A stretch of DNA of 64,000 bases from Mobula hypostoma. Taxonomy: Eukaryota. The notes under the pieces are model-generated. The model saw only the letters and a program-made list of their open reading frames with translations. It was not told the origin of the DNA and searched no databases. Position numbers and translations under genes: made by a program. Each line of letters begins with the position of its first letter. Positions within the stretch are counted from its first letter, which is position 1. The stretch is taken from assembly GCF_963921235.1 (NCBI RefSeq), contig NC_086107.1:92816001-92880000 (forward strand), given 5' to 3'. This document shows, piece by piece, positions 18,943-60,505 of the stretch.

Positions 18943-19042
18943 GCAACACACACAAAGTGCTGGAGGAACTTGGCAGGTCAGGCAGCACCTGTGAAAATGA
19001 ATAAACAGTCGACATTTTGGGCCAAGACCCTTCTTCAGGACT
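18943..19042 (-). mobile_element. Penelope terminal-repeat mini-insert with degenerate hammerhead, inside a CR1 3' fragment
   Basis: Reverse complement reads agtcCTGAAGAagggtcttggcccAAAAtgtcgactg. Confidence 0.8.
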
Positions 19043-19298
19043 TGTGGGAAAAACCTTCCTGCATTTACCCTTAATATTTTGTATACATCTTTCAAATCTT
19101 TCCTCAAATCTTCTGATTATCTATGTAAAGTCAGTTGTTTCACCTCCTTTTTCCACCCTCCCCTGGCCCCTTTCAAACCCACAGCCCTGTCCTCAGCCAC
19201 TCACCCTTTCATGAAAAGCTCCATCTTTTTGGTATGTGTCGAGTGGACAACCAGAGACTCTTTTCCCAGGGCAGAAATGGCTAATACAAAGGGGCATA

Positions 19299-19425
19299 AT
19301 GATGAATGGTCTCGGCCCGAAACGCCGACTGTACCTCTTCCTATAGATGCTGCCCGGCCTGCTGCGTTCACCAGCATTTTTTGTGTGTGTTGCTTGAAAT
19401 TCCAGCATCTACAGATTTCCTCGTG
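19299..19425 (+). mobile_element. Penelope terminal-repeat mini-insert inside a CR1 fragment
   Basis: gatgaatggtctcggcccgaaacgccgactg...ccagcatctacagattt. Confidence 0.8.
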
Positions 19426-20567
19426 ATAACTTTAAGTGTTGGAAGGAAAGTATAAGGCAGATATCAGAAATTTTTTTTTACATGGAGAGCAGGTTAAGGA
19501 GTTGGCACAGCAAGTGGGTCGAAGGACCTGTACTCTGCTATAGTGTTCTATGTTTTCACCTTTCAGTTCAAACTGCAGTTCTCCCCCTTTGTGTGTTCTG
19601 TGCTGATCTGCTGAGCTTGTTACCACTGATCCTGGGCACGTTATGCTGTCGCTGGAATGGGTGACAGTGCTTGTGGGCTTGCATCGTCACATCCTTGGGT
19701 GTGCTGGCTGTTAACACGAAGGACGTATTTCGCTGTATGTCTCGGTGTCCGTGTGACAAACAAGCTTGGATCCTGCGTTCTGAATCACGCTGCCATTTCT
19801 CCGCGGACCCTTCACTGGAGTCAAAGTGACGGACGTTTTATCTGGGGTGGAGGTACAAGCGGACCAAAACAAATGCGTTGACCTTAAGCTGATGTGTTAT
19901 CCCTGTCGTCTGGGAAAGAATCCAGAAGCAAGCTGTTGCTCAATACATTGCTGTTATGGCATCCTGTTGTGAAATTAATCGACTGCTGTTTGATTACACT
20001 TCAAAGAAGATATAATATACTCTCCCACCTCCCGCCTTCTTTATTTTACTATTCTAGTTCTCCTCTCACCTGCTTCTCTTTTCCTTTCTGTGGTTCCCTC
20101 CTTCCCTTTCTCCCATTGTCCACCCTCCTCGCTTATCAGATTCCTTCTTCCCCTTTACCTCTACCACCTACCACCTCCCAGTTTCTTACTTCCACCCTCC
20201 CCCTCATCCCTCACCCACCCAACCTCCTCTCACCTGGTCTCACCGATCACCGGCCCCTCCTCTCACCTTCTCACTCTGCTTTTTGCCCCCTCCCTTCCCG
20301 GTCCTGATAAAGGATTTTGGTCTGAAGTGTTGACAGCTTATTTCCCTCCATTGATGCTCCCTGACCTGCTGATTTCCTCCGGCATTTTATGTGTGTGTGT
20401 TGCTCTGGATTTACAGAATCTGCAGAATCTCTTGTGTTTACGAGCCATGCTTCTCTTCATAGACTAGGGAATAAAATATAAAGTAGGGATATTACGTTAC
20501 CACTTCAGAAAAATCTGGCTAGACCACACATGGAGTATCAGCTGTCAGCTTGCACTCCTCCCCTTCC

Positions 20568-20756
20568 CAAACAAGAGAAAGTCTGCAGATGCTGGAAATC
20601 CGAGCAACACACACAAAATACTGGAGGAACTCAGCAGGCCAGGCAGCATCTATGGAAAAGAGTACGGTCGACATCTCGGCCCAAAACGTCGACTGTACTC
20701 TTTCTCATAGATGCTGCCTGGCCTGCTGAGTTGCTCCAGCATTTTGTGTGTGTTAT
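20568..20756. mobile_element. Fold-back (palindromic) Penelope terminal-repeat element
   Basis: Arms 20606-20672 and 20688-20754; TSD tcctccccttcc at 20556-20567 and 20757-20768. Confidence 0.9.
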
Positions 20757-21199
20757 TCCTCCCCTTCCTCCCCTTCCTCCCGCCTTCTTATTCTGGCTTC
20801 TGACTTTTCCAGCCCAGATGAAGGGTCTCAGTGCAAACTGTTGACTGCTTATAGATTCTGCCTGACTTGCTGAGTTTCTCCAGCATTCTGTCTGTGTTGC
20901 AGAGGGCACATGGGTCAGAAACGGGGTAAAGCTCTCACTACACCATCCTGTCACACACTCCAAGGTTCAGGTAGCCTCCTGGGGGCAGGAAAGGATAGCT
21001 ATCCATGTATCCTGGAAGCGGGCAGCAGAGGACTCCGCCTGGCAATATTCCAGGAGTACGTCTGTGTCTGGGTAGCCACGGAAGAGGAACCCATGGTGTC
21101 CACAGATACCGTCATGACCACAGATTTTGCCGCAGAGTCTGGGGCCCTTTCAGGCAGGCAGCTGAACATGAGAATGCATATTCCAGCCAGTTAGTATTT

Positions 21200-23190
21200 C
21201 ATTGTGGTTGTACGTAACTCCCTGCCTTGTTGTTTCATCTTTGTCAAGTCTTGACCAACGGACAGTGATAGCTACCTCCCACCGCTCCCCCCTTACCTTA
21301 ATCCTTATTCCAGTACAGTTTAAACTGATGCTGTAAAGAGGTGGAATTAATTTAGTGTTAAATTACTACTCTGAGCTAAAGTGTCATTGTTAGCTTTAGT
21401 TTGAGAGTTTTAGTTAATGGCCTTGTTGGCCTAGCTCTTATTATTCTCTTTCCTTTTGTTCTGCGCAGTTCTTATTAAAATTCAATGAACTGTTCAATCT
21501 GCTTTAGTGTCTCTCCCTCTGCACTTGGGCTATCACTGCACATCTGTCTGAACAAGACTCAAGCACCAAAATGGACCCAGTGAAGAGAGAACAGCTGAGC
21601 ATGGCCCTGACATTCATTGTTCAGGTAGGAGAGAAGTTAAAGTCAGTGGAGGCTGCGCTAGCAGCGGTGTCTCATGCAGTGCGATAGCTACTCACAAAAG
21701 ACAAGCCCAGTCCAAACTGAAGTTCGCAAAGGAGAAGTTAAAGTCAGTAGAGACTGGGTTGGCAGAAGTGACCCACATAGTGTGACAACCACTTTAAGAG
21801 TGGCAGGCCCAGTCCAAGCAGGAACGACTGGTTTCAATACTCACACAGAACAGTTCAATAACTCACCACGAACAGCCAGAACCAGGTGGCAACATTAATG
21901 CTCTCGCTGCCGCACTTCAACAGCCTTCAGCCAGGACGTTCCCACTCCCAGCATAAGCACCTCCCACATACTCCTCTATAACAGTTTCATACACCTCAGC
22001 CACTAATTCTCCAATTCCCTTGGCAGCTTCTGGACCTGAACCAAGCATTCCTCCACCAGAAACTCCAGAGACCCCCCCCCCCTCCCGCCATGGCTGCAGA
22101 AACTTTATTACCCACTGTGAGATGACTTTCCAATCCCAGCCAGGTCTTTTAGGTGATGAAGTGTGTAAACTAGTTTACATGATGAATTTCTTAGATGAAC
22201 TCCGAGTCAGCCTGTTCAACGTTCAATGAGGACTAAGTTCCCCTGCAGCCCAGTCTTTCGTGCAATTTGTAGTCGAGATCAAGAGAGTTTTTGATCTTCC
22301 GGTACGGGATCGGGAGGCTGATGGTCAACCTCTGGGCAGCAGCAAGAACGACCTTTCCGCAGAACCCCTCCAACTTCTGCTAGAAGGCAACCGCAGGGAA
22401 CAGCTCTCCTAACCTGAACTGCTGTTGGTACTTGGCCTTGCCTGGCTATCTCCATACAACCCATGGATCTGCCACTGTGCGCCACAGTGTATTGGATTGA
22501 GGTCACCCTTCCCATCTGCTTGGCCACACGTGGATTCAACAGACACTAGAATTTATAGAGAGACTATTTTGGTGGTTGTCTATGTCACAGGATGCCCACA
22601 ACTTCATCTCTGCCTATCCCACATGCCCAGAACAAGACACCATGTCAGCACTCTGCCTCTAGTCCCAACTCTCAATGGATTTTATCACTGGCCTCTCGCC
22701 ATCAGATGGAGACACTTCCATTCTGGTAGCTGTGGACCGGTTCTCCAAAGGTGCCTCATTCATTCCTCTCCCCAGGGTCTCCCCATCAGCTTGTGAGACT
22801 GTCACCCTCATGGTTCAGCATGTGTTCAGGCTGCACAACTTCCCTCTGGACATTTTGGGAAGATTTTCTGTTCTCTTTTGGGAGCAACAGACAGCCTCTC
22901 ATCAGAATTACTCTCACGATCCAATGGCCAGACTGAGACAGTGCATCAAAAGCTGCAGACAGCCGTGCACTGCCTTGTATCTTCCAAACCCATGACCTGG
23001 AGCTCTCAACATGCTTGGGCAGAGATTGCCTACAATAACCTCCAGTCATTCCCCACTGGTATGTCTGCCTTTGAATTTCAAAAGGGATTCCAGCCACTGC
23101 TCATCTCTGATCAAGAGAATAACATGGGAGTTCCTACCCCTGTACAGTTGGTCCAACGCCAGAAGCACATGTGGGAATGGGCTGGGGCTT
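21200..23190 (+). mobile_element. Internally deleted Ty3/Gypsy LTR retrotransposon remnant (gag + integrase, no RT seen)
   Basis: gag-like MDP start at 21571 and GCRNFITHCEMTFQSQP; integrase MDFITGL...VDRFSK, SNGQTETVHQKL, WAEIAYNN; left boundary approximate. Confidence 0.8.
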
Positions 23191-23192
23191 AG

Positions 23193-25140: not shown

Positions 25141-25548
25141 TAAGCCCTGTTATTTACTCTATTATTATTGCGATTAAATAATATAAAATACTGATTTTTG
25201 TGTTGCTGTTGTTGCTTGTGGTGTTCTGTTCAATATTGTGTGCATGCTGCACTGATGCCAGAATACGTGGCAACACTTGTGAGCTGTACCGGTACATCCT
25301 TAGCTGGTATTGCTTGTTCATGCAAACGACACGTTTCATTGTGTGTGTCACAGCTAGGGTACTGTGTGCGGCTCAGGACACCACACCACAGGATGGGTTT
25401 GATTGCACTGGAGCGGATGCAAAGGAGATTCCCTCTTCTCATTGCTACCATCATGGAGGAGGTACAGGGACCTGAAGACCCACACTCAATGTTGTAGGAA
25501 CAGTTTCTTCCCATCACCATCAGATTTTTAAATGGTCCACTTACCCTT

Positions 25549-25551
25549 TCT

Positions 25552-25588
<37 letters not shown>

Positions 25589-25601
25589 ACACACACACAC
25601 T

Positions 25602-25644
<43 letters not shown>

Positions 25645-25651
25645 TCTCTCT
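25549..25651. repeat. (TC)n(CA)n microsatellite
   Basis: Direct reading of the sequence. Confidence 0.95.
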
Positions 25652-25797
25652 CAACAACTCAAAGTAACTCAGTTAATTTATTATCAAAGTGCATATATGT
25701 GACAGACACGGGTGGTGGGGAAAGAAAAAAAAGTGCATATATGTCATCATATACAACCCTGAGATTGATTTTCTTGTGGGCATACTCAATAAATAAT

Positions 25798-26885
25798 AAC
25801 TATGACCCCTGACGCCTGGAACTTCCACCATACTGCTAGTGAAGACTGTTGCAAAATACTTATTCAGTTCGTCTGCCATTTCCTTGTCCCCCATTACTAC
25901 CTCTCCAGCATCGTTTTCCAACGGTCCAATGTCCACTCTCACCTCTCTTTTACACTTTATGTATCTGAAGAAACTTTGGGTATCTTCTTTAATATTATTG
26001 GTTAGCTTACTTTCCTATTCCATCTTTACCTTCTTAGTGACTTTTTTTTAGTTGCCTTCTGTTGGTTTTTAAAAGCTTCCCAATCTTCTATTGTATGTCA
26101 TCCCTTTGGCTTTTATGTTGGCTTTGACTTCTCTTGTTATTCACGGTTGTGTCATCTTTTCTTTTGAATACTTCATCCTCTTTGGGATGTATATATCCTA
26201 TGTCTTCTGAATTGCTTCCGGAAATTCCAGCCATTGCTGCTCTGCCATCATCCCTGCCTGTGTTCTTTTCCGATCAATTCTGGCCAACTCCTCTCTCATG
26301 CCTCTGTAATTCCCTTTACTCCACTGTAATACCAGTACATCTAACTTTAGCTTCTCCTTCTCACATTTCAGGGTGAATTCAATCATATTATGATCACTTG
26401 CCCATAAGGGGTATCTTACCTTAAGCTCGCTAATTAGTTCTGGTTCATTACACAACACCCAATCCAGAATAGGTGAGCCCATATTGGGCTCAACCCCAAG
26501 TTGCCCAAAAAAGTCATCCTGTAGGCACTCTAGAAATTCCCCTTCCTGGAATCCAGTACCAACCTGATTTTCCCAATCTACTTGCATATTGAAATCCCCC
26601 ATGATTATTGTAACATTGTCCTTTTGACATGCATTTTCCATCTCACAATGTAATTTGTAGACAAAATCCTTACTGTTGTTTGGGGGATTGATATACAACT
26701 TCCATCAGGGTGTTTTTACCCTTGAAGTTCCTTAGCTCTATCCACAATGATCCAACACCTTCCGACCCTATGTCACCTCTTTCTAATGATTTGATTTCAT
26801 TTTTTTACCAACAGAGCAATGTTGCCTTTCCCTTGCCTTCCTGCCTATCCTTTCCATACAATGTGTATCCTTGGACGTTAAGCCC
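25798..26885 (-). mobile_element. CR1-like LINE, APE endonuclease region
   Basis: IIMGDFN, ILDWVLCN, SDHNMIEF. Confidence 0.9.
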
Positions 26886-27977: not shown

Positions 27978-28400
27978 TGATGAGTCTCGGTCCGGAATGT
28001 CAATTGTAATTTTCCCCGCAGATGCTGCCTGGCCCACTGAGTTCCTCCAGCATTTAGTGTGTGTTTCTTGGAGCATCGCCTTTTGAAGATGTCTTCGATG
28101 GTGAGGAGGCTAATGCCCATGATAGAGTTGGCTGAGTTTACAACTCCCTGCTGCTTTTTCGGATCCAGTGCAGCAGCCCCTCCACACCAGACAGTGATGT
28201 GACCAGTCAGAATGCTCTCCACCGTACTTTAGTAGAAATTTGCGAGAGTCTTTGGTGACGTATCAAATCTCCTCAAACTCCAAATGAAATATAGCCGCTG
28301 GTGTGCGTTCTTTGTAACTGCATCAATAAGTTGGGCCCCAGATAGATCTTCAGAGATGCTGACACCCGGGAACTTGAAGCCGCTCACAGTTTCCACTGTT
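27978..28400 (-). mobile_element. Penelope terminal fragment (plus orientation) joined to a Rex-Babar 3' fragment
   Basis: gatgctgcctggcccactgagttcctccagc followed by ESILTGHITVW and FKFPGVSISEDL on the minus strand. Confidence 0.75.
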
Positions 28401-29210: not shown

Positions 29211-29299
29211 AAATGAAAAACTACACACAAATAAAGCCTGACAAACAACCAAGATTTAAAAGAATACAAACTGTGCAAATACAAAAAAAAAGAAAGGTT

Positions 29300-32330: not shown

Positions 32331-32974
32331 GTGGTACAATGGGAAAAAAAAACAGAATGCAAAATAAAGCGTTACAGTTACAGAGAAAGTGCAGTGCAGG
32401 CAGGCGATAAGGTTCAAAGGCCATAACAAGGTGGATTGAAATGTCTAGAAGCCATCTTATTCTACCAGGGAACCATTCAATAGTCTCAGCAGGCTTTTGT
32501 ATGTTCTGCCCAATGGCAGAGGGGGGATCAGAGAACGTCTGGGGTGGGCTGGCTCTTTGATTTTGCTGTCTGCTTTACTGAGGCAGTAAGGAGTATAGTC
32601 CAAGTCTATGAAGGGGGGGCTGGTTTCAGTGATAGGCTGAGCTTTGTTCACAACTCTGTGAAGTTTCTTGTGGTCTCAGATAGAGCAGTTGCCATACCAA
32701 ACTGGGAATAACCGGGGAGAGGTCTATTTGAGGTGGCCTGTTCCCAGTTACTCTTCATCCCACCCTCACTGATATGAATGGAATAATAACATTGTACTGG
32801 TGTCACCAAGGTAATAGTGGCCCATTGGGAAGGTGAAAGCCCACTACCCCATTCTGTTTCTACCATCAGCAGTTTCTTCAGTCATTTGAGAATCAACTGA
32901 GGTCAAAATGGAACAGGTTTCCAGTCATGTAACCTGGTGGGCTTGCATTCAACACCCAACACATGTCTTCCTAA

Positions 32975-33110
32975 TTCGACAGACGCTGGAAATCCAGAAC
33001 AGCACACACAAAATGCTGGAGGAACTCAGTAGGTCAGATTGCATCTAAAGAGAGGAACTAACCGTCGACGTTTTGGGCCAAAACTTTTCATCAGAACTGT
33101 GTATGTTCCT
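32975..33110 (-). mobile_element. Penelope terminal-repeat mini-insert
   Basis: Flanked by tgtcttcct at 32964-32972 and 33111-33119; degenerate hammerhead. Confidence 0.7.
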
Positions 33111-33139
33111 TGTCTTCCTCATAGTGTTGTAGAGTCATA

Positions 33140-34098
33140 GTAAATTGCCCACTAAACCTGCATATTAGCTCTGTTTCATAAAGCAGTAACCCCTCCCCCA
33201 AAACCGCCAGATTTCAGATCTTAACGTAGAACATAAAACATAGAACATTACAACAGAGTACAGATAGATATATGATACCTATTGTTTTGTGACAGCAGTA
33301 CAGTGCAGAACATAAAAAATACCATAAATTGCAATAAAAATATATATGTATAAAACATATAAGGTAAAAAGAGGGCAAAAATAGTGAGGTAGTGTTCATG
33401 AGTTCATTGACAATTCAGAAATCTGATGGTAGAGAAGATCCCACTTTCTTGAAGCAAGAAGAGTCTCAGCCCGTAACTTTTTCCATAGATGTTGCCTGGC
33501 CCGCTGAGTTACTCCAGCATTTTGTGTGTGTTTCTTGAAGCCTCACCTTTTTTAAGGTGTCCTCAATGGTGAGGAGGCTAGTGCTCATGTTAGAGTTGGC
33601 AGAGCTTACAACTCTGCAGCTCTTTTCCAATTCTGTGTAGGGGCCTCTCCATACCAGACAGTGGTACAACCAGTCAGAACGCTCTCCACGGCAAGATCTG
33701 TCGAGATTTGCTAGAGTCTTTGGTGACATGTCAAATCTCCTGCCTGTAAAAGGTTTGCACATTCTCCCTGTGATCGGGTGGGTTTCCTCCCATATTCCAA
33801 ACACATACAGGTTAGTAGACCAGATTCCTTCTCCTTCAGCCCTTCACCTCTTCCACCTGTCCCGTCTCAGCTTCACACGTCATTCCCCCTCCTCCACCCA
33901 CCTATCTTTCCCCTCATCTGGCTTCACCTATCACCTTCCAGCTGGTAAATTGCCCACTAAACCGGCATATTAGCTCTGTTTCATAAAGCAGTAACCCCTC
34001 CCCCAAAATCACAAGATTCCAGATCTTAACATAGAACATAAAACATAGAACATGACAGCAGAGTACAGCTATATATATGATATCTATTGTTTTGCGAC
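33140..34098 (+). repeat. 154-bp direct repeats (33140-33293 and 33945-34098) flanking a composite of TE fragments
   Basis: gtaaattgcccactaaacc...ctattgttttg(t/c)gac present twice, roughly 90% identical by eye. Confidence 0.9.
33456..33530 (+). mobile_element. 75-bp Penelope terminal-repeat insert
   Basis: TSD tttcttgaagc at 33445-33455 and 33531-33541. Confidence 0.8.
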
Positions 34099-34964: not shown

Positions 34965-35642
34965 CTGTCGATGGCATGCAAAACAAAGCTTTTTGCTGTA
35001 CCTCAGTGTAGGTGACAATAATAGATCGATTAACCTTTTCTCAGTGACGTTTTCAGTTCTTTTCTGGATGTAGGCTTTGCTGACACAGCCTGGCTTCATA
35101 CAGTGAAATTGTGCTGATTGGTCACCTCCCTAATGGCTGCAGTGGGTGTGAAGGTTTAGTCAGAGTCAGCAGTCAGGAATCACGAGTAGGTCAGATAAGG
35201 GTGGAAGGGAACCGAATGGAAGCATATCCCGACAGGTGAGAATACGTCACCGCAAAATAGAAGGTTTCAGATGAAGAGACACCAGAGATTCTGCAGCTGC
35301 TAATAATCCAGATCAACACACACAAAATGCTGGAGGAACTCAGCAGATCAGGCAGCATCTGTGAAGGGAAATAAACAGTTGATGTTTCGGGCTGAGATCT
35401 TACGTCAGAAGTCCTGATGGTTAATTCCCATGGTGGAGCTGGTTGCGTGTATTACGCCCTGCAGCTCAAATGCATGGTGTCTACTGTTTAATATTTCTAC
35501 CTTGGGAGAACAATTCTGACTACCTATCCTATCTGGACCTCTCAAAATTTTCTTTCCCCCTTCAGCCTCTGACACCCTAAACGAGGTTGATCTTGACAAA
35601 TATTCTCTTTTAAACAACATCCATGTAACAGATTATTGGCTG

Positions 35643-35734
35643 CACTCACAATACACTGGAGGAATTCGGCAGGTCGGGCAGCATCCGGGGAAACGATCAG
35701 TCAACATTTCGGGCCGGAACCCTTCGTCAGGACT
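35643..35734 (-). mobile_element. 92-bp TSD-bounded Penelope-derived mini-element carrying a hammerhead
   Basis: TSD gattattggctg at 35631-35642 and 35735-35746. Confidence 0.9.
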
Positions 35735-35735
35735 G
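35698..35735 (-). ncRNA. Minimal type-I hammerhead ribozyme motif
   Basis: cagtc-CTGACGA-a-gggt-tccg-gccc-GAAA-tg-TT-gactg: stem I 5 bp, stem II intact, GUU cleavage triplet. Confidence 0.8.
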
Positions 35736-35905
35736 ATTATTGGCTGTTTGTGAGATCACGCTGTGAAAATAACGATTGGCCCAATTTCATAAATAACAAC
35801 AATTCATTACTTTTGATGAGATATTTATGATAGATTATAAGTGCGATATTAATTTGTACTGAGGTGAGAAAACATTTCTCCTGTTTCCATGGTGGTGTGA
35901 AGCCC

Positions 35906-36998: not shown

Positions 36999-37945
36999 TT
37001 GAGTTGTGGAGTCCGTGAGAGTGAGTCTATAGGCTGTGTTCAGTCGTTAGCTCAGTGTTGAGGTGAGGGACGTTGTCCATACTGGTTCATAAGTTTGACG
37101 GTTGCAGGGCATTAACTGTTCCTGAACCCAGTGGTGTGGGACCTAAAGCTCCTGCATCTCCTTCCCAATGGCAGCAGCGAGAAGAGAGCATGACCTGGGT
37201 GCTGGGATTCCTCGATGATGGACACTGCTTTCTTGTGGCAGCGCTCCTTGTAGATCTGGTCAGCGGTGGGGAGGGCCTTGCCCGTGATTAACTGTAATTG
37301 ACCCTTACTAGTATGTCACATGTAGCGAGAAAAACTGAAAATCTTTCGCTTGAATGCCATGCAGACAAATCATTCCACTCTAGGGGTGATACAGCAAGGA
37401 AACAGGTGGATGTAACAGACAGCTGACAACAAACCCTGGTGAGTTTAAAGGAAGCATGGGAACTCGGGCACCAAGAACTTTAAAGAGGCACGGGGAAAGA
37501 GTCTGGTTAGGAGCATGGGGAGCCACACCCCAGAAATTTTACACAGAAGGGAGTGTGGGAGCAGGACTCCTCGGTGTTCAAAGGGATGGCGGGACCCTTC
37601 TGAACCAGTTGTCAAACTATTGGGATTTCCAAGCAACGTCAGAGTTCAACTATTTCAGGGTGCTGCATCAGCAAGTTTGCAGCGCTTGGAGGTTCATGGC
37701 AGGGAGATTTTCTCCCTTCTGCCATCTGCGTGAGATGATGGGGCTATCGGGACTTTGAGACTTTCTTTTACCGTGCCCATGGTCTGCTCTTTATCAAATT
37801 ATAGCATTACTTTGCACTGTTGTAACTATATGTTATAATTAAAAACAAAAACAACAGGAATTCTGCAGATGCTGGAAATTCAAGCAACACACATCAAAGT
37901 TGCTGGTGAACACAGCAGGCCAAGCAGCATCTATAGGAAGAGGCG

Positions 37946-37982
37946 CAGTCGACGTTTCAGGCCGAGACCCTTCATCAGGACG
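37946..37982 (-). ncRNA. Minimal type-I hammerhead ribozyme motif in the PLE 3' terminal repeat
   Basis: gtc-CTGATGA-agggtctcggcct-GAAA-cg-TC-gac: complete core, GUC triplet, palindromic ACGU stem III. Confidence 0.85.
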
Positions 37983-38280
37983 AACTGAAGGAAGAGTGAG
38001 TAAGGGATTTGAAAGCTGGAGGGGGAGGGGGAGATGCAAAATGATAGAAGAAGACAGGAGGAGGAGGGACGGAGCCAAGAGCTGGACAGGTGATAGGCAA
38101 AAGGGGATACGAGAGGATCATGGGACAGGAGGTCCGGGAAGAAAGACGGCGGGGGGGGGGGGTGACCCAGAGGATGGGCAAGAGGTATATTCAGAGGGAC
38201 AGAGGGAGAAAAAGGAGAGTGAGAGAAAGAATGTGTGCATAAAAATGAGTAACAGATGGGGTACGAGGGGGAGGTGGGGC

Positions 38281-40913
38281 CTAGCGGAAGTTAGAGAAGT
38301 CAATGTTCATGCCATCAGGTTGGAGGCTACCCAGACGGAATATAAGGTGTTGTTCCTCCAACCTGAGTGTGGCTTCATCTTAACAGTAGAGGAGGCCGTG
38401 GATAGACATGTCAGAATGGGAATGGGATGTGGAATTAAAATGTGTGGCCACTGGGAGATCCTGCTTTCTCTGGCGGACAGAGCGTAGATGTTCAGCAAAG
38501 CGGTCTCCCAGTCTGCGTCGGGTCTCACCAATATATAAAAGGCCACATCGGGAGCACCAGACGCAGTATATCACCCCAGACTCACAGGTGAAGTGATGCC
38601 TCACCTGGAAGGACTGTTTGGGGCCCTGAATGATGGTAAGGGAGGAAGTGTAAGGGCATGTGTAGCACTTGTTCCGCTTACACGGATAAGTGCCAGGAGG
38701 GAGATCAGTGGGGAGGGATGGGGGGGACGAATGGACAAGGGAGTTGTGTAGGGAGCGATCCCTGCGGAATGCAGAGGGGGGGGGAGGGAAAGATGTGCTT
38801 AGTGGTGGGATCCCGTTGGAGGTGGCGGAAGTTACGGAGAATAATATGTTGGACCCGGAGGCTGGTGGGGTGGTAGGTGAGGACCAGGGGAACCCTATTC
38901 CTAGTGGGGTGGTGGGAGGATGGAGTGAGAGCAGATGTACGTGAAATGGGGGAGATGCGTTTAAGAGCAGAGTTGATAGTGGAGGAAGGGAAGCCCCTTT
39001 CTTTAAAAAATGAAGACATCTCCCTCGTCCTAGAATGAAAAGCCTCATCCTGAGAGCAGATGCGGCGGAGACGGAGGAATTGCGAGAAGGGGATGGCGTT
39101 TTTGCAAGAGACAGGGTGAGAAGAGGAATAGTCCAGATAGCTGTGAGAGTCAGTAGGCTTATAGTAGACATCAGTGGATAAGCTGTCTCCAGAGACAGAG
39201 ACAGAAAGATCTAGAAAGGGGAGGGAGGTGTCGGAAATGGACCAGGTAAACTTGAGGGCAGGGTGAAAGTTGGAGACAAAGTTAATAAAGTCAACGAGTT
39301 CTGCATGCGTGCAGGAAGCAGCGCCAATGCAGTCGTCGATGTAGCGAAGGAAAAGTGGGGGACAGATGAACATAGATTGTTCCACAAACCCAACAAAAAG
39401 GCAGGCATAGCTAGGACCCATACGGGTTCCCATAGCTACACCTTTAGTTTGGAGGAAATGGGAGGAGCAAAAGGAGAAATTATTAAGAGTAAGGACTAAT
39501 TCCGCTAGACAGAGCAGAGTGGTGGTAGAGGGGAACTGATTAGGTCTGGAATCCAAAAAGAAGCGTAGAGCTTTGAGACCTTCCTGATGGGGGATGGAAG
39601 TATATAGGGACTGGACATCCATGGTGAAAATAAAGCGGTGGGGGCCAGGGAACTTAAAATCATCGAAAAGTTTAAGAGCGTGAGAAGTGTCACGAACATA
39701 GGTCGGAAGGGATTGAACAAGGGGTGATAAAACAGTGTCGAGGTATGCAGAAACGAGTTCGGTGGGGCAGGAGCAAGCTGAGACAATAGGTCGGCCAGGA
39801 CAGGCAGGTTTGTGGATCTTGGGTAGGAGGTAGAAACGGGAAGTGCGGGGTGTGGGAACTATAAGGTTGGTAGCAGTGGATGGGAGATCCCCTGAGCGGA
39901 TAAAGTCGTTGATAGTGTGGGAGACAATGGCCTGGTGCTCCTTAGTGGGGTCACGATCGAGGGGTAAATAAGAGGAGGTATCCGCGAGTTGTCGCTGTGC
40001 CTCGGCAAGGTAGAGGTCAGTACGCCAGACTACAACAGCACCCCCTTTATCAGCGGGTTTAATAATAATGTTAGGATTAGTGCGGAGGGAGTGGAGAGCA
40101 GAGCGTTCCGAAGGAGTGAGGTTGGAATGGGGACAAGGTGCGGTGAAGTCGAGACGGTTGATGCCTCGTCGGCAGTTGGCAATAAAGAGATCCAGAGCAG
40201 GCAGAAGACCAGAGCGGGGTGTCCATGAAGAAGAGGAGGGTTGAAGACGGGAGAAGGGGTCATCGGTGGGGGTGGAAGAGTCCTTGCCGAAGAAGTAGGC
40301 TCGGAGACGGAGACGGCGGAAGAAAAGTTCCGCATCGTGGCGAACACGGAACTCGCTGAGGTGTGGGCGAACGGGGACAAAGGTGAGGCCCTTACTGAGG
40401 ACAGAGCGTTCTGCCTCCGACAGTTGAGGGTCGGAGGGGATGGTAAAGACCCGGCATGGATGAGAGCTGGGATCAGAGGGGGGAGGTGGGAGGCTGGGGG
40501 TGTCAATGGAGAGAGGAGGGTTGGGGTGAGAGGAAGATGGAGCCTCTGAGGGCCCAGGAGTTGACGGTGGGATCTGAGGAAGACGGGGCTGCGGAGTGGT
40601 GGTGGGGGAAGGGGAGACGGGAGTCACAACAGCAGCACATAAAGACCCGGCCTGGTGTTCAAGGCTGGAGTTGCAGTTGGTGGTTGCGTAATCACTTCGA
40701 ATGTGTCCATGGTCGTTGCTGGAGTCCGGGTTTTGAATATGTCCTGAGGTGTTGGAGCCGCCGAGATCAATGGTAGGGGCCGCAATTGAAAGTTCATGCC
40801 TGCTAGCGTCGGGGCCGGCAGGCTCTGGAGTCCGTAGATGTAAGATCTTGCGATCTTTGCCTAACATGACAAAGTCAAAAAAACGGCGATTGCAGGCGTG
40901 GATCCGACGGAGG
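38281..40913 (-). pseudogene. PLE RT-GIY-YIG polyprotein ORF with one frameshift (G9 run at 38776-38784) and one premature TAA (38380-38382)
   Basis: The 764-aa and 263-aa ORFs join across the homopolymer; reading continues DEATLRLEEQHLIFRLGSLQPDGMNIDFSNFR to TAG at 38281-38283. Confidence 0.85.
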
Positions 40914-42038
40914 ATGTTATAATTATGTGGTTTTGTCAGTTTTAGTCTTGGTTTGCCCTGTGTTTCTTGTGATATCATTCTGGAGGAACATTGTATCATT
41001 TTTTAATGCATGCATTTCTAAATGACAATAAACGAGGACTGAGTGTCCTCATAATCAAATCTAAAAACAAAACTAATCACGCAACACAAGGGTTATAGAT
41101 AGGACAGGACGGATTATACATGCAAGTAGGCTTTTTCCACTGACGTTGGGTGAGGCTAGAACTAGGTTAAGGGTGAAAGGTGAAATATATAAGGAACTTC
41201 TTCACTCAGAGGGTAGAGAGAATGTGGAAGGAGCTGTTCGCGAACGTGGTGGATACAGCTTTGATTTCAGCAGTTGATAGAAATTTGGATAAGTACATGG
41301 CGGGAGGTGTATGGTCCAAGTGTGGATCAATGGGTCTGGGCAGAATAACAGTTCTGCATGGTCCATAAGTGCCTGTTTCTGTGCTGTAATGTTCTATGAC
41401 TCTAAGTAGGTTTAAGTGGTTATTACACAGAGCATTACCTATGTCTAATGGGGGGGGGGGAAGAGTCTAATATTGCAGTCCTTCCTCACAGAGCCTCTGT
41501 CGTGACTTGCCATTTATCTTGCAGGCCTGAGCCCCCAGACTGAAAGTTCTGGTCACAATCAGTCCCTTGCGCTAGAAGATAAAACAAAGTATGCCCTCCA
41601 TAGAGTTGATGACCCTCCTGGGCAAAGTTTGGTGTTTGTCGCAGGGAGCACAGTCCTGTGATAAAGACTGAAGACGAAAGAAATGAGCTTCATTTGTACC
41701 TTGAACACCAAAACATACGGTGAGATGCATCGTTTACATCAATGACCAGGACAGTCGAAGGATGTGCTGGGGGCAGCCCACAAGTATCGCCATGCTTCTG
41801 GCGATATATACGGTGACAAATATGTACTTTGATAATCAATTTAGTTTAAATTTTGAACTTTGCCAACAACTTACTAATTGATTATATCATTACAGAGCCT
41901 GCCATTAGTTTTGGTTACAATATTTATGTATGTCAATATTGCATGAATTTTTCATTCCAATTATTTTATCAGAAATAAGTTTGAGAAGTTATTACACAGA
42001 GTCCTGCCTTGGTCTGGTAGTTGAAGGATCTATTATTA

Positions 42039-42238
42039 AAGTCTGCAGATGCTGGAAATCCAAAGCAACACACACAAAATGCTGGAGGAACTCAGCAGGT
42101 CAGGCAGTGTCTATGGAAATGAAGAAACAGTCGACGTTTCGAGCCGAAACCTGTCTTCAGGACTGAGAAGGAAGGGGGAAGATGCCAGAATAAAAAGGTG
42201 GGGGAGGGGGGGAAGGAGAATTAGCTAGAAGGTGGTGG
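42039..42238 (-). mobile_element. Penelope terminal repeat with hammerhead core (42128-42165)
   Basis: Reverse complement reads cagtcCTGAAGAcaggtttcggctcGAAAcgTCgactg; stem II mismatched. Confidence 0.8.
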
Positions 42239-42239: not shown

Positions 42240-43745
42240 ACTTTGTTTTCAAATCTTTTTATTGTGAAGCAACATCAGCTTAACCACAACTGACAATGTC
42301 CTAAAGTACAATGCTTGTTTTTCCTTTTCTTTCTTATAACAACATAATGAAAGTCAAATGAATGTACGTAAACAAGCAAAAAGCAAAGGAAACTCTACCA
42401 CCCTGTCTCCGTTCCCCTTTCCCAGCCCTACCCTCCCCTCACCCCTCCCGTACGTGCTATTTAGGTGCTACCGCCCCACACTTAGTTCAGCTGTCGGTCT
42501 CTTTGAAATACAACAGTAATGGTTGCCAGATTTTTTCAAATTCATTGAGTCTCTCCTTGATAACATATCTTATCCGCTCTAGATGCAGAGTATCCATTAA
42601 TGCAACCAGCCATTGTCTGAGTGATGGAGTTTCCTCCTTTTTCTAGAACATCAGTATGAGTTTCTTTCCATTAAGTATGCCATAGGTCAGGAGTTGTTGC
42701 TGGATAGCCTGGAATTTATTTGACCTCGCAGAAGTTCCAAAAATTACTAAAGTGAGGTCTGGTATTATCTGAACCTTTAGTACCTTCGATAGGACCTCAA
42801 ATATTTGCTTCCAGTACTCTTGTATCCTGAGACATAAAGCATAACTATGTAACAAATTTGCTTCTGAGGACTTGCATTTCTCACACATTAGGGACACCTC
42901 TGGGAATATTTTATAACCATACAACCATATAACAATTACAGCACAGAAACAGGCCATCTCGGCCCTTCTAGTCCGTGCCGAACTCTTGCTCTCACCTAGT
43001 CCCACTGACCTGCACTCAGCCCATAACCCTCCATTCCTTTCCTGTCTATATATCTACCAATTTAACTTTAAACAACAAATTTATGAATCCTTACTTTTGA
43101 GTAATGTAGTCTATGTTGGATTTTAAATTGTATTAAACAATGCCTGGCATTGATGGAACAGGAGTTAACATACTCCAAAGCCTCATTCCATATAACCTCC
43201 TCTATCTCTGTACCCAACTCCTTTTCCCACTCTTTTTTAATATTATCCATTGTTGTATGACACTTGTTTTCCATGGCATCGTACAGATAGGCGATAATGT
43301 GTTCTGTCCCTAAACATGATCTTAAATGATCATCTAATTTATCATGTTCTGCTGTCTTAAAACCAGAAATATGTGATCTTATGTAGTGTCTTAGCTGGAG
43401 ATACCTGAAAAAATGAGTCTTTTGCAATCTGAATTTGTCCTGGAGCTGCCGAAATGATCCAAAAATCCCTTGTATGTATAAATCTCCAACGCTGCATATC
43501 CCTAATTCTCACCATGCATCAAAGGCACCATCTATGCATGAGGGCTTAAAGAGGGGTTCGCTGATATAGGTACAAGAAAAGATAATGTTCTGAGTTTCAA
43601 ATGCTTCCCCATTTGTCTCCACATCTATATGGTGCTATGGATACTGGGATTGCCTCTATAACAGGCTTTATTTAACCAAATAGGGGACATAATGATTGCC
43701 CCTATGGAATATGGTAGGCAATCCTCACGCTCCATCTCCAACCGA
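42240..43745 (-). mobile_element. L1/Tx1-clade LINE ORF2 C-terminus with a CR1-tail insert (about 42912-43077)
   Basis: FFRYLQLRHYI, LIQFKIQHRLHYS, CEKC...H...C (CCHC). Confidence 0.85.
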
Positions 43746-43754: not shown

Positions 43755-45910
43755 TACTTTATACTTTATTGTCGCCAAACAATTGATACTAGAACGTACA
43801 ATCATCACAGCGATATTTGAATCTGCGTTTCCTGCTCCCTGGATTTCAAATCGATAGTAAATATTAAAAATTTAAATTATAAGTCATATATAGAAAAAAG
43901 TAAGGTAGTGCAAAAAAAACCGAGAGGCAAGTCCGGATATTTGGAGGGGTACAGCCCAGATCCGGGTCAGGATCCGTTCAGCAGTCTTATCACAGTTGGA
44001 AAGAAGCTGTTCCCAAATCTGGCCACACGAGTCTTCAAGCTCCTGAGCCTTCTCCCGGAGGGAAGAGGGACGAAAAGTGTGTTGGCTGGGTGGGTCGTGT
44101 CCTTGATTATCCTGGCAGCACTGCTCCGACAGCCTGCAGAGTAAAGTGAGTCCAAGGACGGAAGATTGGTTTGTGTGATGTGCTGCGCCATGTTCACGAT
44201 CTTCTGCAGCTTCTTCCGGTCTTGGACAGGACAACTTCCATACCAGGTTGTGATGCACCCTAGAAGAATGTGAGGATTTTAAGGGATAGGTCAAATTTCT
44301 TTAGTTTTCTCAGGAAGTAAAGGCGCTGGTGGGCCTTCTTGGCAGTGGACTCTGCTTGGTTGGACCACGTCAGGTCATTTGTGATATTAACCCTGAGGAA
44401 CTTAAAGCTTCTGACCTGTTCCACTTGCGCACCACCGATGTAAATTGGGTTGTGCGATCCCCTACTCCTTCTGAAGTCAACAACCAATTCCTTCATCTTG
44501 CTGACATTGAGAGATAGGTTATTGTCTTTGCACCATGCCACCAGGTTCTTAATTTCCTCTCTGTACTCAAACTCATCATTACCCGAGATACAGCCTACAA
44601 CTGTTGCGTCATCAACAAACTTATATATTGAGTTCGATGGAAACTTGGCTACACAATCATGGATGTACAGTGAGTACAGCAGGGGGCTGAGTACATAGCC
44701 TTGTGGGTCACCAGTGCTCAGAGTGATTGTAGAGGAGAGCTTGTCCCCTATTTTTACAGCCTGGGTCCTGTCTGTGAGGAAGTTGAAGATCCAGCTGCAG
44801 ATCTGAGTGCTAAGGCCCAGGTTCTGGAGCTTAGGAATCAGTTTATTTGGAATGATGGTATTAAAGGCAGAGCTGTAGTCAATGAAAAGGAGCCTTACGT
44901 ATGCGTCTTTATTCTCCAGGTGTTCTAAGGAGGAATGTAGGGCCGGAGAGATGGCATCTGCCATTGACCTGTTGCTCCGGTAGGCGAATTGCAAAGTGTC
45001 GAGGTTGACCGGTAGGCTGTGGCTGATGTGTGCCGTAACCAATCGCTCGAAGCACTTCATAACAATTGATGTCAGAGCCACAGGTCGATAGTCATTCAGG
45101 CATGCCACCTTGCTCTTCTTCGGCACTGGGATTATCGTTGCCTTCTTAAAGCACGAGGGGATCTTAGACTGAAGCAAGGAGCAGTTGAAGGTGTCAGCAA
45201 ACATTCCAGCTAGCTCGCTTGCACAGGCCCAGAGAACCCCTCCCGGGACGCCATCTGGGCCCGTTGCCTTCTTTGGATTTATCTTCAGGAAGGCCCTTCT
45301 AACGTTCTCCTCAGTGACGATGAATCTCGATGCCACCAGGTCCAGTCAATCCGGAGGGAGTGGGATGCTCCTCTTCTGTTCGAATCTTGCGTAGAATACG
45401 TTAAGTTCATCAGGAAGAGAAGCGCCACAGTTATTGATATTCCCAGCCTTTTCTTTGTGCCCAGTGATCTCATTTAGACCCTGCCACAGTCTGCTGGCAT
45501 CCCTCTGTTTAGCCTGGGCTTCCAACTTGGCTTGATATTGCCTCTTGGTGCCCTTAATGGCTTTCCGGAGTTCACGCCTGGATTCCGTGTAGCGACTGGT
45601 ATCTCTGGACCTAAGAGCCGCAGCTCTAGGCTTCAAAAGGAATTTGACCTCATAATTCATCCAAGGTTTCCGGTTAGGGAATACCCAGATCGTCTTGCGA
45701 GACACACGGTCCTCTGTGCATTTCCAAATAAAGTCCGTGACAGCTGAGGCATACTCATCGAGGTCAGCTGCCGAGTCCTTGAATACTAACCAGTCCACCG
45801 ATTCAAAGCAGTCACGGAGGACCTCACCCGCTTCCTCCGTCCAACGCGACACTACTTTTGACACCGTGACCTCCCGCTTCAGTTTCTGTTTGTAAGCTGG
45901 GAGGAGGAGT
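43755..45910 (-). mobile_element. Relatively young Rex-Babar LINE, 5'-truncated
   Basis: 358-aa RT ORF with [37 protein letters not shown]. Confidence 0.95.
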
Positions 45911-46298: not shown

Positions 46299-46309
46299 CG
46301 AGAGAGAGA

Positions 46310-50135: not shown

Positions 50136-50550
50136 GCAAGATGGGGAAGTCAGGCAACACACACCAGTCCTCATCGCAGCAATGGAAAGGATGAGCAGCT
50201 TCAGGTTCCTGGTGTCAACACCTCTTAGTCAACATCCTGGGCCAAGCGTATTGATTCAATCACAAAGAATGTACAAGATCAATAAAGCCTGCAACGGGTG
50301 GTAATCTCAGTCAGTTCCATCATGAGCATGAGCCTTCCCTCCATCAAGGTTATCTCCAAACGGCGGTGCCTCAGGAAACATCATTAATTACTACGGACTC
50401 TCACCATCAGGGCATGCCCTCTTCCCATTTCTACCATTGGGGAGGAGGTACAGGAGCCTGAAGACACACACTCGACATTTTACGAACAGCTTCTTCCCCT
50501 CCGCCATCAGATTTCTGAATGGCCCATGAACCCTCCAACACTACCTCACT

Positions 50551-50764
50551 GACAAGAGAAAATCTGCAGATGTTGGAAATCTGAGCGACGTGCACAAGAT
50601 ACCGGAGGAACTCAGCGGGACGGGCGGGACCTATGGGAAAAAAGTACAGCTGAAGTTGCGGGCCAAAACCCTTCGGCAGGTTTCGGCCCAAAATGTTGAC
50701 GGCATGCTTTTCCCTAAATGCTGCCTGGCTTGCCGAGTTCCTCCAGCGTTTTGTGTGTGTTGCT
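50551..50764. mobile_element. Fold-back Penelope terminal-repeat element
   Basis: TSD aacactacctcact at 50537-50550 and 50765-50778; two inverted terminal-repeat arms meeting within the hammerhead stem II. Confidence 0.9.
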
Positions 50765-51159
50765 AACACTACCTCACTATTTCTTTTAGATTTTTAACAA
50801 TATTTCGTATTTCTACTTAGAGCAATCTTTTTATATATTACACTGCATTGCTGCTGCAAAACAACAAATTTTATTTGTCAGTGATAATGAACCTGACTCT
50901 CTGATCTCCAACATATGAACAGCGGGTCGGAGCAGAGGGGCTGATTATCAGCTACAGGAAGACTTTGACCTGCAGGGCAATAACTTCTCTTATCTCTACA
51001 CCTTTTGTGATGGATTCAGCCAAACACTTCATACTTTTGTTGGATGGGGGGTGGATTAAGTTGTCCAGATGGTTCCTCAGAAGTAAAGAATGAGGCTCAA
51101 TCCTGACAGTCCCACTTGTGTTATTGGATGTGCATCATCATACAGGTCAGATTGCAAGC

Positions 51160-53598: not shown

Positions 53599-53606
53599 AT
53601 CTTAAG

Positions 53607-56330: not shown

Positions 56331-56440
56331 GGTAATCATTTTCTGGTGCAGAAGAAGCAGCCAGCATACTGAAAGCAGCTGAATTATAGGTCGAATCAAA
56401 AGTGGTGATGAATCAGCATATAAGAGGGAGATTGAAAATC

Positions 56441-57845: not shown

Positions 57846-58809
57846 GAGGTTGAAAATCTGGTTGAGTGGTACCACAACAACAACCTCTCACTCAATGTCA
57901 GCAAGACCAAGGAGCTGATTACTGACTGCAGGAGGAGGAAACCAGAGGTCCATGAACCAGTCCTCATCAGGGGATCTGAGGTGGAGAGGGTCAGCAACTT
58001 TAAATTTCTCTGTGTTATCATTTCAGAGGACTTGCCCGGTGCCCAGCACCAAAGCACAATTACAAAGAAAGTATGGCAGTGCTGGCAGTGCCTCTACTTC
58101 CTTAGAAGTTTGCAAACATTTCAAACTTTGACAAACTTCTATAGCTGTGTGGTGGAGAGTTGTGTCACAGCCCGGTACAGAAACATTAATATCCTTGAAT
58201 GGAAAATCCTACAAAAAGCGGTGGATACGGCCTGATCCATCATGGGTAAAGCCCTCCCACCATAGAGCAGGAAAGCAGCATCCATCATCAAGGACACCCA
58301 CCACTCAAGCCATGCTCCTTTCTCACGACTGCCGTCAGGGAGAAGGTCCAGGAGCCTTGGGACCCACACCACCAAGTTCAGGAACTGAAGCATCAGGCTC
58401 TTGAACCAGAGAAGATAACTTTATTTAACTTCACTCGCCCCATCACTGAACTGTTCCCACTCATATAACAGAGTTGACTGGTCATATTTTAGATCTGGAT
58501 TTGCCTTGTAACCCTTTCCCATATATCTCTGTAGAAATGGTTCTGATGGATACTCAACAGGCCCCCCCCAACCCCCGTGCTCTGCTGTGGACGTACTGGA
58601 ACCAGTGGTAGACTGGCTATAACTCTATAACAGTGTTATACTGTTTACTTTTTAACTTGTGTTGTAAATGCACCACATTATTTGATCCTTATTTGTGGTA
58701 ATATTACTTTATGTCTTGTTTATGTATATGTGTGAGAAGTATTTGAACTGTGTTGTGCACCGTGGTCTGGAGGAACGATGCTTTGCTTGGAGGTGCACAT
58801 GTGTACAGT

Positions 58810-59100
58810 TCTTATCCTTCTTATCTATCACCCCTACTGGAGCATAGGCCACCAACATCAGCTCGCCAGGGTCTTCTGTCCTGGGCCAAGAGAAGGATGA
58901 TCAGCCCTGTGGCCTTTACTTTCACCACATGACTTCATACTTCTTCTGGGAAGTGATCCTTCCTCTCCTAGGGATGAGGTCTTTTGAGCTTCTACTGGCA
59001 TTTCTGTAGCTCTGGGTTTTTATTGGATGGGGTTGCTAGCCCCACGGCCAAACCTCTTTCTTTCACAGCCAGACTTGGGACCGTCCATGGCAGAGTTGCG
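58810..59100 (-). mobile_element. Short RTE-like non-autonomous element
   Basis: Reverse-complement similarity to 29035-29210. Confidence 0.55.
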
Positions 59101-60376
59101 TGTACGGTTGAATGAGAATAAACTTAAACTTGAACTTGAAGGGTTGACACAACACTGTGGGCCACAGGACCGGTGGTGTACTGTACTGTTCTTTGTTCTA
59201 TATGCATAAAAAGTTAACAATTTAGCCCCTAATGCAACACTTGTTTCGGTGGCAACCGAACAGGAGTAATACAATCCTGTGCAGTACTGGGCAGAAAATT
59301 TGTTTTCAGCTCCTATTTTTGGACAACATAACCGGAGGCAATGGAATTTTTTTTCTTTTCTGTACATTGAACCTCTGCCACAGCTCCTGTCTGTGCACAG
59401 TACAAAAGTAAAGACTTCATTCCCAGCTGATCGACCTCCAAAAGACGTACAGGTTACGGATAATAAGTTGTGGGCATGCACGTTGCACATTGGTTGTTTG
59501 TCAGTCTTTGTGTGTAGTTTTTCACTGATTCTATTGTATTTCTTTGCTCTACTGTGAAAGCCTGCAAGAAAATGAATCTCAAGGTAGCTTATGGTGACAT
59601 ATACGTACATACAGTACTTTGATACAAATTTCTTTTGAACGTTGCTATGTTGGTGTTGGAAGCATGGCATCACTTCCAACTTCCCCCAGCACATCTGCAG
59701 ACTGTGTTGGTCATTGATGCAAAGTAATGCACTTTACTGTATATTTCAATATTTTGATGCACATGTGACAAATAAAGCTAATCTTTAATCCTTAAACTAC
59801 CAGCTTTGCCAGTGAAATGGGGGGGGGGGGGGCATCAACTGCTGGAATTACACCCAGCTTCAGTGAACAAACAATTAATTTCTCCTAAAATGTTGGCCGT
59901 TTCATTCAGGCATCACTTCTTACATGGCTGGCTGCATCACTACTTGACTTGTCAATCCCAAGTCTCAAACTCCAGTAATTGCTAGTAAATTATCTGACTC
60001 TTTTCACCATTTTCAAAGCAATGGGAGTAACAGTTATTTGCAAATCTGCCTTCTGGGTGAAATCTCTCAACAACACGGATCTGGCAGGCAATTTGTTCCC
60101 TTTGCTTTTTGCTTTGCAGGGAGAAGAAAAGAACATTTCAACATCCAGGCTTGTCAGATCTTTTACAGGGAACCTAATGCATGAGAGCACAAACTCACCC
60201 CTCATGATTCTAACCTGCCACTATATAAAGTGAACCAATAGCCTCATTATCTGCTCATTTTAACAGCCCGCGTACTCCTTGATCTGTTAAAATTTCGGGA
60301 GTAGAACACTACAGCACAGACAGGCCCACAATATTATGCCGACCTTCCAGTCTACTCAAAATTCAACCTAACCCTG

Positions 60377-60505
60377 AACAGGAGAAAATCTGCAGACTCT
60401 GGAAATCTGAAGCAACAGACACAAGATGTTGGAAGAACTCAGCGAGCCAGGCAGTGTCTACGGAAAAGAGTAAACAGTTGATGTTTTGTCTGTTTCATCA
60501 GGACT
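60377..60505 (-). mobile_element. Penelope terminal-repeat mini-insert with decayed hammerhead
   Basis: tctgcagactctggaaatc...catcaggact. Confidence 0.75.

Follow-up and report, generated by a model that had tools for sequence, protein, structure and literature searches.

Short repeats scattered through a 64,000-nucleotide (nt) stretch of the Mobula hypostoma genome (positions 92816001-92880000 of contig NC_086107.1; hereafter the window) are copies of the 3' module of a Penelope-like element (PLE), and this module opens with a hammerhead ribozyme. Across the 3.48-Gb assembly that we searched, independent insertions of the module share a sharp 5' end on the first three bases of the ribozyme, and the site at which the ribozyme is predicted to cut is not preferred. 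We number the module h1-h132, with h1 being the A of AGTCCTGA.

An initial annotation of the window had reported four minus-strand copies with a common 5' boundary at the octamer TCAG(G/A)ACT. This octamer stands at 19035-19042, 33091-33098, 35727-35734, and 60498-60505, and all four copies start at h1 or h2 (the A or G of AGTCCTGA) next to non-pyrimidine flanks. Three plus-strand copies that were said to begin near the same edge start at h6, h6-h9, and h8. The edge is the 5' strand of helix I, as had been proposed, and lies 32 nt ahead of the predicted cut (about 30 nt in the earlier estimate). By itself, the octamer was not enriched in the window: 13 matches were counted where 8.85 were expected, and 7 of 100 shuffles also reached 13; the edge signal resides in the sequence context, not in the 8-mer.

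Using a profile of the 132-nt module, we located 22 copies in the window. Of these, eight continue into a CT-rich tract, four are the minus-strand copies above, one minus-strand copy starts at h4, three are the plus-strand copies, and four form two head-to-head pairs. The last two start at h45 with a common flank and so belong to another element. The upstream flank is 33-52% pyrimidine-equivalent in the four cited copies versus 77-88% in the eight that read on. For these 8 of 22, which include the octamer-bearing copies with edges at 12181 and 42164, the similarity lost at the edge reflects subfamily divergence of the CT-rich tract and not truncation.

Target-site duplications (TSDs) mark several of these insertions. 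The TSD of the copy at 35642-35734, GATTATTGGCT (35631-35641 and 35735-35745), directly abuts h1 with no spare base. The copy at 32973-33098 is flanked by TGTCTTCCT (32964-32972 and 33111-33119), with a 12-nt filler at 33099-33110. The head-to-head pair at 50551-50768 is bracketed as a whole by CTACCTCACT (50541-50550 and 50769-50778), and its place within a single TSD implies one insertion event. Thus, the cited copies and the pair represent genuine, separate insertion events.

We also considered that the edge is an artefact, similarity being lost only because the adjacent tract is of low complexity and varies between subfamilies. This holds for the eight copies that continue into another subfamily's CT-rich tract and could explain an approximately 11-fold rise in contig depth at the edge (at 90% likeness). 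However, the cited copies have ordinary, non-CT flanks and TSDs, so for them the artefact, which the initial annotation had raised as an effect of an adjacent purine tract, is already refuted. In the young subfamily, copies and native CT tract are 94-99% conserved, which makes truncation unambiguous. As a general account of the edge, we give the artefact next to no credence.

A sharp 5' end at h1-h3 across the genome

Exact-pattern searches gave counts for the whole genome and the letters of the first 100 places listed. A 22-nt tail anchor of the young subfamily occurs 90,159 times, and the base 107 nt upstream of it is a pyrimidine at 63,525 of these and a purine at 26,634. We read 200 listed copies by hand from -45 to h35, half of them pyrimidine-anchored and half purine-anchored. 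Among the 100 pyrimidine-anchored rows, 56 show native continuation, 27 are head-to-head, 12 are simple truncations, and 5 start past h35; the corresponding figures for the 100 purine-anchored rows are 1 continuing, about 67 in pairs, 28 simple truncations, and 4 starting past h35. Nearly half of the 40 simple truncations fall on h1-h3 (19/40; 13 at h1 and 6 at h2 or h3), and the other 21 are scattered, with small clusters at -12/-14 and -36.

For counts per position over the whole genome, we required two non-native bases followed by 12 native nt at a fixed distance to the tail anchor. This pattern found 160 ends at -8, 984 at -1, 2,338 at h1, 2,504 at h2, 1,108 at h3, 958 at h5, 343 at h20, 543 at the cut site (h33), and 284 at h37, and native read-through (TT plus h1-h12) numbered 43,928. 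Several of the counts away from h1-h3 are inflated. At -1, about two-thirds are expected from h1 starts preceded by a chance T, and h1/h1 palindromes make up 22 of the 100 rows listed; at h5, about 42 of 100 listed rows are one junction type (GA/CTGACG, the slash marking the junction) and 17 are a 1-nt deletion variant; at h20, about 40 of 100 listed rows are the palindrome centre CAGG/CCTG; and at h33, about 30 of 100 are internal deletions, CT/GACTG. Allowing for the 9/16 probability that both preceding bases are non-native, approximately 10,000 copies end on h1-h3. The cut-site class is about 4 to 5 times rarer than the h1 or h2 class. Older CTGATGA-type copies show the same preference, with 736 ends at h1 versus 244 at h5. 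The genome-wide peak at the edge is therefore present and 2 to 3 nt wide by exact counts at the chosen positions.

Modules that lie upstream of an open reading frame (ORF) gave 8 h1 ends versus 223 (3.6%, with 11.9 expected), compared with 5.3% for all modules. A suggestion that the upstream modules of long copies have no h1 end had been drawn from 0 of 23, which was too few, and is overturned by these 8.

A hand count over C1:0-4.36 Mb assigned 56 of 144 rows (39% of copies) to minus-then-plus pairs. One arm very often ends on h1-h3, and the other ends at h3, h6, h8, h11, h25, h37, h59, h71, or -12, with 0 to 13 nt of filler between the arms; h1/h1, h1/h6, h1/h8, and h1/h37 are examples of junctions. 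Finding the h1-h3 end both in pairs and in simple copies implies the same discrete end whether the cDNA joins the target or a second cDNA. The minus-then-plus orientation is expected from priming on both strands of one cut target, as shown for an anole enzyme (PMC11167929), and an inverted partner is drawn as typical PLE structure in a part of PMC8557442.

Recurrent head-to-tail junctions also occur inside the ribozyme: AC/GTCCTGACG in 16 of 100 listed h2 rows and the GA/CTGACG type at h5. A template jump made at about h2-h5, landing on an RNA that ends in ..GAAACGTC (the 5' cleavage product) or ..GTCGA, would be consistent with them, and if so, they would be an indirect trace of cleaved RNA.

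The parent element and its hammerhead module

The 100- to 132-nt window repeat is the 3' module of a very abundant PLE, and the parent is a canonical endonuclease-bearing PLE with the published hallmarks of that group. The module consists of a minimal dimer-type hammerhead (h1-h36) and a "tail" that ends at h99-105 or h132. Our reference is a long copy (37841-40913) flanked by the TSD ATGTTATAATT at 37830-37840 and 40914-40924; it is 5' truncated at 40913. A 765-amino-acid (aa) frame at 38705-41002 on the minus strand matches the reverse transcriptase (RT) domain RVT_1 weakly (E 7.4e-05, 23 bits, against a Pfam cut-off of 29.6 bits). Past its stop codon follow about 300 nt of CT-rich sequence, the hammerhead at 37947-37982 (CTGATGA at 37978, GAAAC, and GTC then GAC), and a tail of about 95 nt reaching to about 37851.

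Better-preserved genomic copies have an ATG about 40 nt past the tail. In one of them (L004), the last 309 aa of the ORF carry a C-terminal GIY-YIG match (PF01541, residues 212-286, E 2.1e-04) that at 22.0 bits is marginally below the 22.6 cut-off, with GVIY..YIGE motifs visible. Partial tandems of the pseudo-long terminal repeat (pLTR) type are present, for instance two units 3,516 nt apart on contig C21, and part of an upstream unit, reaching beyond h1, precedes the ORF in 22 of 41 long copies. Two 3'-end classes lie about 33 nt apart: 40 young copies end at 812-825 or 850-855 in reference numbering, and the window copies at h96-105 or h122-132. Summed contig depth over the module is about 11 times that of the adjacent CT tract and about 300 times that of the ORF start, a measure that mirrors copy number and cannot show RNA ends.

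Helix I of the hammerhead is predicted to pair h1-4 with h33-36 and helix II to pair h13-16 with h21-24; the palindrome ACGU (h28-31) takes the place of helix III, and the cut is predicted after h32. A hairpin of -10..h1 with h6..h15, looping out h2-h5, is also predicted. Among 31 copies, the conserved core columns are at least 90% identical, and both helices pair in register in 86.3% of cells versus 12.8-52.3% when slid. Covariation in these 31 copies was not above that of shuffles, 401 of 500 of which reached the observed score, and the minimum-free-energy fold of the module was no better than that of shuffled sequence (z -0.12). Searches with the Rfam hammerhead models gave no match at gathering score in the window and none at E up to 10 in 37840-38010. 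Support for the structure thus comes from conservation only. The motif fits the minimal hammerhead ribozyme of Cervera and De la Pena (PMC4209133) and not any Rfam family.

Several features of the copies lie outside this argument. Upstream of the copy at 60378-60505, AGTCCT (h1-h6) is repeated right next to h1 (60506-60512), which looks like a template end that was re-copied. A 60- to 70-nt repeat at 19231-19300 (821 first-look candidates, 86-95% identity) ends where the plus-strand copy begins at h6, and this junction at 19300 may reflect a chimeric retrocopy or a switch of template to a different RNA. The copies at 19042 and 19300 do not form a fold-back element, the spacer between them being unique DNA. 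Elsewhere in the genome, short module units of the same family form retrozyme-like head-to-tail arrays (spacings of 145, 310, and 327 nt); the window copies are singles or inverted, not head-to-tail.

The inverted ends of another element apparently include a portion of the PLE tail, with arms at 3006-3046 (minus) and 3328-3400 (plus) that both start at h45 and have the same upstream flank, ..ATAAAT[AG]TTTATTCCC. PLEs can contain introns, and h40-h53 in every module (37930-37943, minus strand) is a conserved pyrimidine run followed by AG and ATG that resembles a 3' splice site (CCTCTTCCTATAG/ATG; in older copies TTTTCACAG/G). Neighbours include an unrelated, very abundant repeat of about 260 nt at 42242-42500 (14,124 first-look candidates, 89-93% identity), which adjoins the module at 42039-42164, and a minus-strand frame at 44260-45345 with a strong RVT_1 match (E 2e-28) and an ALKBH8_N-like stretch, which is a different retroelement of the long interspersed element type.

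Table 1. Copies of the PLE and its 3' module in the window, with head-to-tail arrays from elsewhere in the assembly (two arms on opposite strands are marked by a point)
Feature	Position	Strand	Remarks
Short PLE copy	18941..19042	-	h1 to about h101; h1 at 19042; upstream flank unique DNA
Short PLE copy	32973..33098	-	h1-h124; h1 end at 33098
Short PLE copy, 93 nt	35642..35734	-	h1 to about h96
Short PLE copy	60378..60505	-	h1-h132; internal deletion in ribozyme
Short PLE copy	35279..35409	-	starts about h4; non-CT flank
Short PLE copy, young subfamily	19300..19425	+	h6-h131
Short PLE copy	27978..28090	+	starts h6-h9
Short PLE copy	33456..33549	+	starts about h8
Head-to-head pair (minus then plus)	50551..50768	.	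joined inside ribozyme; arms h3 and h13
Head-to-head pair	20571..20756	.	joined at GTCGAC palindrome and helix II; further copy 20812-20900
Module copy, older subfamily	42039..42164	-	runs on into own CT-rich tract; edge not truncation
Long PLE copy, 5' truncated, reference	37841..40913	-	RT ORF, CT-rich 3' untranslated region, hammerhead, tail
Second long PLE fragment	4849..6481	+	ends in module 6351-6480 that runs on upstream
Array, 145-nt spacing	C2:12242849/12242994/12243139
Array, 310-nt spacing	C2:157816729/157817039/157817349
Array, 327-nt spacing	C1:147388391/147388718/147389045

Readings of the h1-h3 end

Because the copies have common 3' ends and differing 5' ends, cDNA synthesis runs from the tail toward h1. 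For RT, the h1 edge is the far side of the ribozyme; for agents coming from the RNA 5' end, it is the near side. The reading that we favor, although we hold it at somewhat less than an even chance, is run-off on template RNAs whose 5' end is the 5' edge of the ribozyme. We infer an RNA end here from sequence, and what points to it is that the end is sharp, lies on the side facing the RNA 5' end, and behaves in the cDNA as a free end able to jump.

In this model, the short repeats would be dead-on-arrival retrocopies of the 3' module of the endonuclease-bearing PLE. Synthesis of cDNA, primed by cut target DNA, would begin at either of two internal sites in the tail (about h99-105 and h132), pass through the hammerhead, and in about one-fifth of events end on h1-h3, the first bases of helix I, by run-off on a subpopulation of template RNA with its 5' end at the ribozyme edge. 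The free cDNA end would then be joined to the upstream target end to leave a simple copy flanked by a TSD, or it would jump onto a second cDNA primed from the other target strand to leave a head-to-head pair.

One candidate cause of such an RNA end is a transcription start on the initiator-like YYA(+1)GTCC; the initiator consensus is YYANWYY, and YY-A-GTCC fits it. The other is 5'-to-3' trimming that is halted by a folded, dimeric, or protein-bound ribozyme. Penelope pLTRs hold a transcription start site according to a section of PMC2377424, and sections of that paper and PMC4209133 place it about 120 nt upstream of helix I. The RT of the anole PLE, studied in vitro, initiates at internal positions, extends both strands, and continues to the RNA 5' end (PMC11167929).

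Several observations weigh against run-off on such RNAs. The h1 rate is similar in the two contexts (3.6% versus 5.3%), as termination of RT at each passage would give. The peak is 2 to 3 nt wide, with h1 about equal to h2 and both greater than h3, a shape that fits several mechanisms. No excess of G precedes h1 in the 100 listed rows, where G was found in 20 and a copied cap would be expected to leave one. About half of the h1-h3 ends join an inverted arm, and microhomology during joining could therefore make the peak sharper. In addition, of 23 ends of long young copies that fall within the stretch examined, 12 lie at or downstream of h106 and none within 3 nt of h1; with most long copies beginning elsewhere, the full-length RNA does not have its main start at h1. 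The 5' ends of long young copies (41 copies, L065-L102 and loci A, B, and C) cluster from h106 to about h150, just upstream of the ATG, and the main 5' end of full-length transcripts probably lies in this cluster.

The strongest competitor, which we nonetheless rate as unlikely, is that RT terminates or switches template on leaving the ribozyme, either at the polypyrimidine tract of about 300 nt or while still anchored to its start module, on an RNA that continues upstream. The two h1 rates (5.3% versus 3.6%; 8 observed, 11.9 expected) fit a stop at each passage at least as well, the sequence upstream of h1 varies by subfamily yet is always pyrimidine rich, and the minor clusters at -12/-14 and -36 suggest further pause sites in the tract. 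However, there is no known reason for RT to stop exactly past the last base of helix I, and about 44,000 copies pass the h1 site. With the anole PLE in vitro, the product followed the RNA 5' end on templates that extended 126 to 145 nt beyond the ORF start in the upstream direction, and the authors report no strong stop (PMC11167929).

A second competitor places the selection at the joining step. Here, cDNA ends would be varied, and AGTC/GACT of helix I and nearby self-complementary ends would be favored by microhomology, most of all where the two cDNAs of a single event are joined to each other. The frequency of pairs with junctions clustering in the ribozyme (56/144), the recurrent junction types h1/h8, h3/h25, and CAGG/CCTG centre, and the predicted hairpin that loops out h2-h5 are all in its favor. 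It cannot explain the h1-h3 peak in simple truncations joined to unrelated target DNA (19/40), and at 35735 a TSD abuts h1 where microhomology is unneeded. We therefore regard it as improbable.

The initial annotation had offered two explanations of its own. In the first, RT stalls at the folded hammerhead, and the h1 end does coincide with a helix boundary. However, RT arrives from the 3' side, where a fold would stop it at about h37 and cleaved RNA would stop it at h33; these positions hold only 284 and 543 ends versus 2,338 and 2,504 at h1 and h2, and some 30 of 100 listed h33 rows are the CT/GACTG deletion variants. The short copies hold a complete ribozyme, so RT had copied all of it, and ribozyme mutants were without effect for the anole PLE in vitro (PMC11167929). 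Stalling at the fold is thus very doubtful.

The second explanation was a discrete short RNA, which remains plausible as a template RNA with its 5' end at h1 but is unsupported as a separate short master lineage. Such a master would be a non-autonomous element, like a short interspersed element or a retrozyme, with its own transcription unit from h1 to the tail. The discrete length classes (about 100 and about 132 nt), the short-unit tandem arrays elsewhere in the genome (spacings of 145, 310, and 327 nt), and h120-to-h2 joints in contigs would suit it. Against this, the h1-start copies contain the same mixture of subfamily variants as the read-through copies (TGCGCC..CTATAG-type rows, counted by hand: about 27 of 100 versus about 24 of 100), their upstream flanks are random and without a promoter, and the window copies are dispersed singles or inverted pairs rather than tandems. 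We attach as little weight to a separate master as to stalling. An intron or lariat origin, prompted by the likeness of the CT tract plus AG to a 3' splice site, was rejected: the copies include the AG, their flanks are random, and contig joints that skip the tract lack GT..AG ends.

Returning to an end set at the RNA level, a broader proposal is that the hammerhead module serves to define an end, either instead of cutting or in addition to it. It would set the RNA 5' end at its own first base or act for its RT as a boundary like the telomerase template boundary, telomerase being a related RT. Such a device could block 5'-to-3' decay in the manner of exonuclease-resistant viral RNAs or carry an initiator in helix I. 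We put this forward as a speculative possibility that is more probably wrong than right. If true, an end-defining module would yield a "strong-stop" cDNA of 100 to 132 nt, accounting for about a tenth of the approximately 90,000 young copies.

Comparison with known systems and meaning

Heavy 5' truncation, tails, pLTRs, and inverted partners are already known for PLEs. Searches of full-text literature, supplements not being covered, turned up no account of a hotspot for truncation at this edge of helix I.

Hepatitis delta virus (HDV)-like ribozymes sit at the 5' end of the R2 and L1Tc non-long terminal repeat (non-LTR) elements and cut at their own 5' edge. The present element shares with them a ribozyme 5' boundary that is the 5' end of the element RNA or of its copies. 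Unlike the HDV-like ribozymes, the hammerhead here is predicted to cut 32 nt downstream of the copy end, and its cut site is about 4 to 5 times rarer as a start.

The comparisons that follow draw on portions of the cited papers. With the endonuclease-bearing PLEs of Craig et al. 2021 (PMC8557442) and Frangieh et al. 2024 (PMC11167929), our element shares a putative RT followed by a C-terminal GIY-YIG, partial tandems, and a hammerhead in the repeat. It also shares two 3'-end classes (about 33 nt apart here; a "tail" of 30 to 40 bp there), frequent head-to-head pairs, and heavy 5' truncation. An adjoining, inverted, 5'-truncated copy together with a pLTR is known for these elements (PMC8557442, PMC11167929). 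In those portions, the two papers call the truncation variable, whereas the helix I-edge hotspot is a feature here.

The minimal hammerheads of metazoan PLEs (PMC4209133; Cervera and De la Pena 2014) share with ours the core CUGANGA..GAAA, a helix I of 4 bp, a base left unpaired ahead of helix II, an ACGU palindrome instead of helix III, and an occurrence as thousands of single motifs. The same paper describes opposite-strand hammerhead pairs 100 to 700 bp apart and lays single motifs to truncated PLEs, with the starts unmapped in the part used here. It also reports that the intron of Drosophila virilis Penelope ends exactly at the helix I 5' end (PMC4209133). The same boundary is thus a landmark of RNA processing in D. 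virilis, a parallel that we regard as suggestive.

Non-LTR retrozymes (Li et al. 2026 preprint, 10.64898/2026.07.22.740005) share short, non-coding, PLE-repeat units with a hammerhead. As described in an excerpt of that preprint, they are tandem arrays and are thought to involve circular RNA cut at the ribozyme, whereas our element has left dispersed singles or inverted pairs, whose start precedes the cut site by 32 nt.

The role of the PLE hammerhead has been hard to grasp from what is known. In the parts of PMC4209133 and PMC11167929 that concern it, the ribozyme is conserved across the class and cleaves poorly in vitro; insertion does not require it in the one reconstituted system, where RNA ends at the cut site were not seen either. 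Our counts add that on the order of 10,000 independent insertions end on the first bases of the ribozyme, with far fewer at the cut site. For annotation, this means that a large share of the "hammerhead motifs" in such genomes are head-to-head pairs and 100- to 132-nt copies, which on our reading arose by run-off, and not functional units. For the family, a vague question about what the hammerhead does becomes a testable one, namely, what creates an end of the RNA or the cDNA where helix I begins. Taken together, the pile-up at h1-h3 points to a discrete RNA or cDNA end and offers a handle on the role of the ribozyme.

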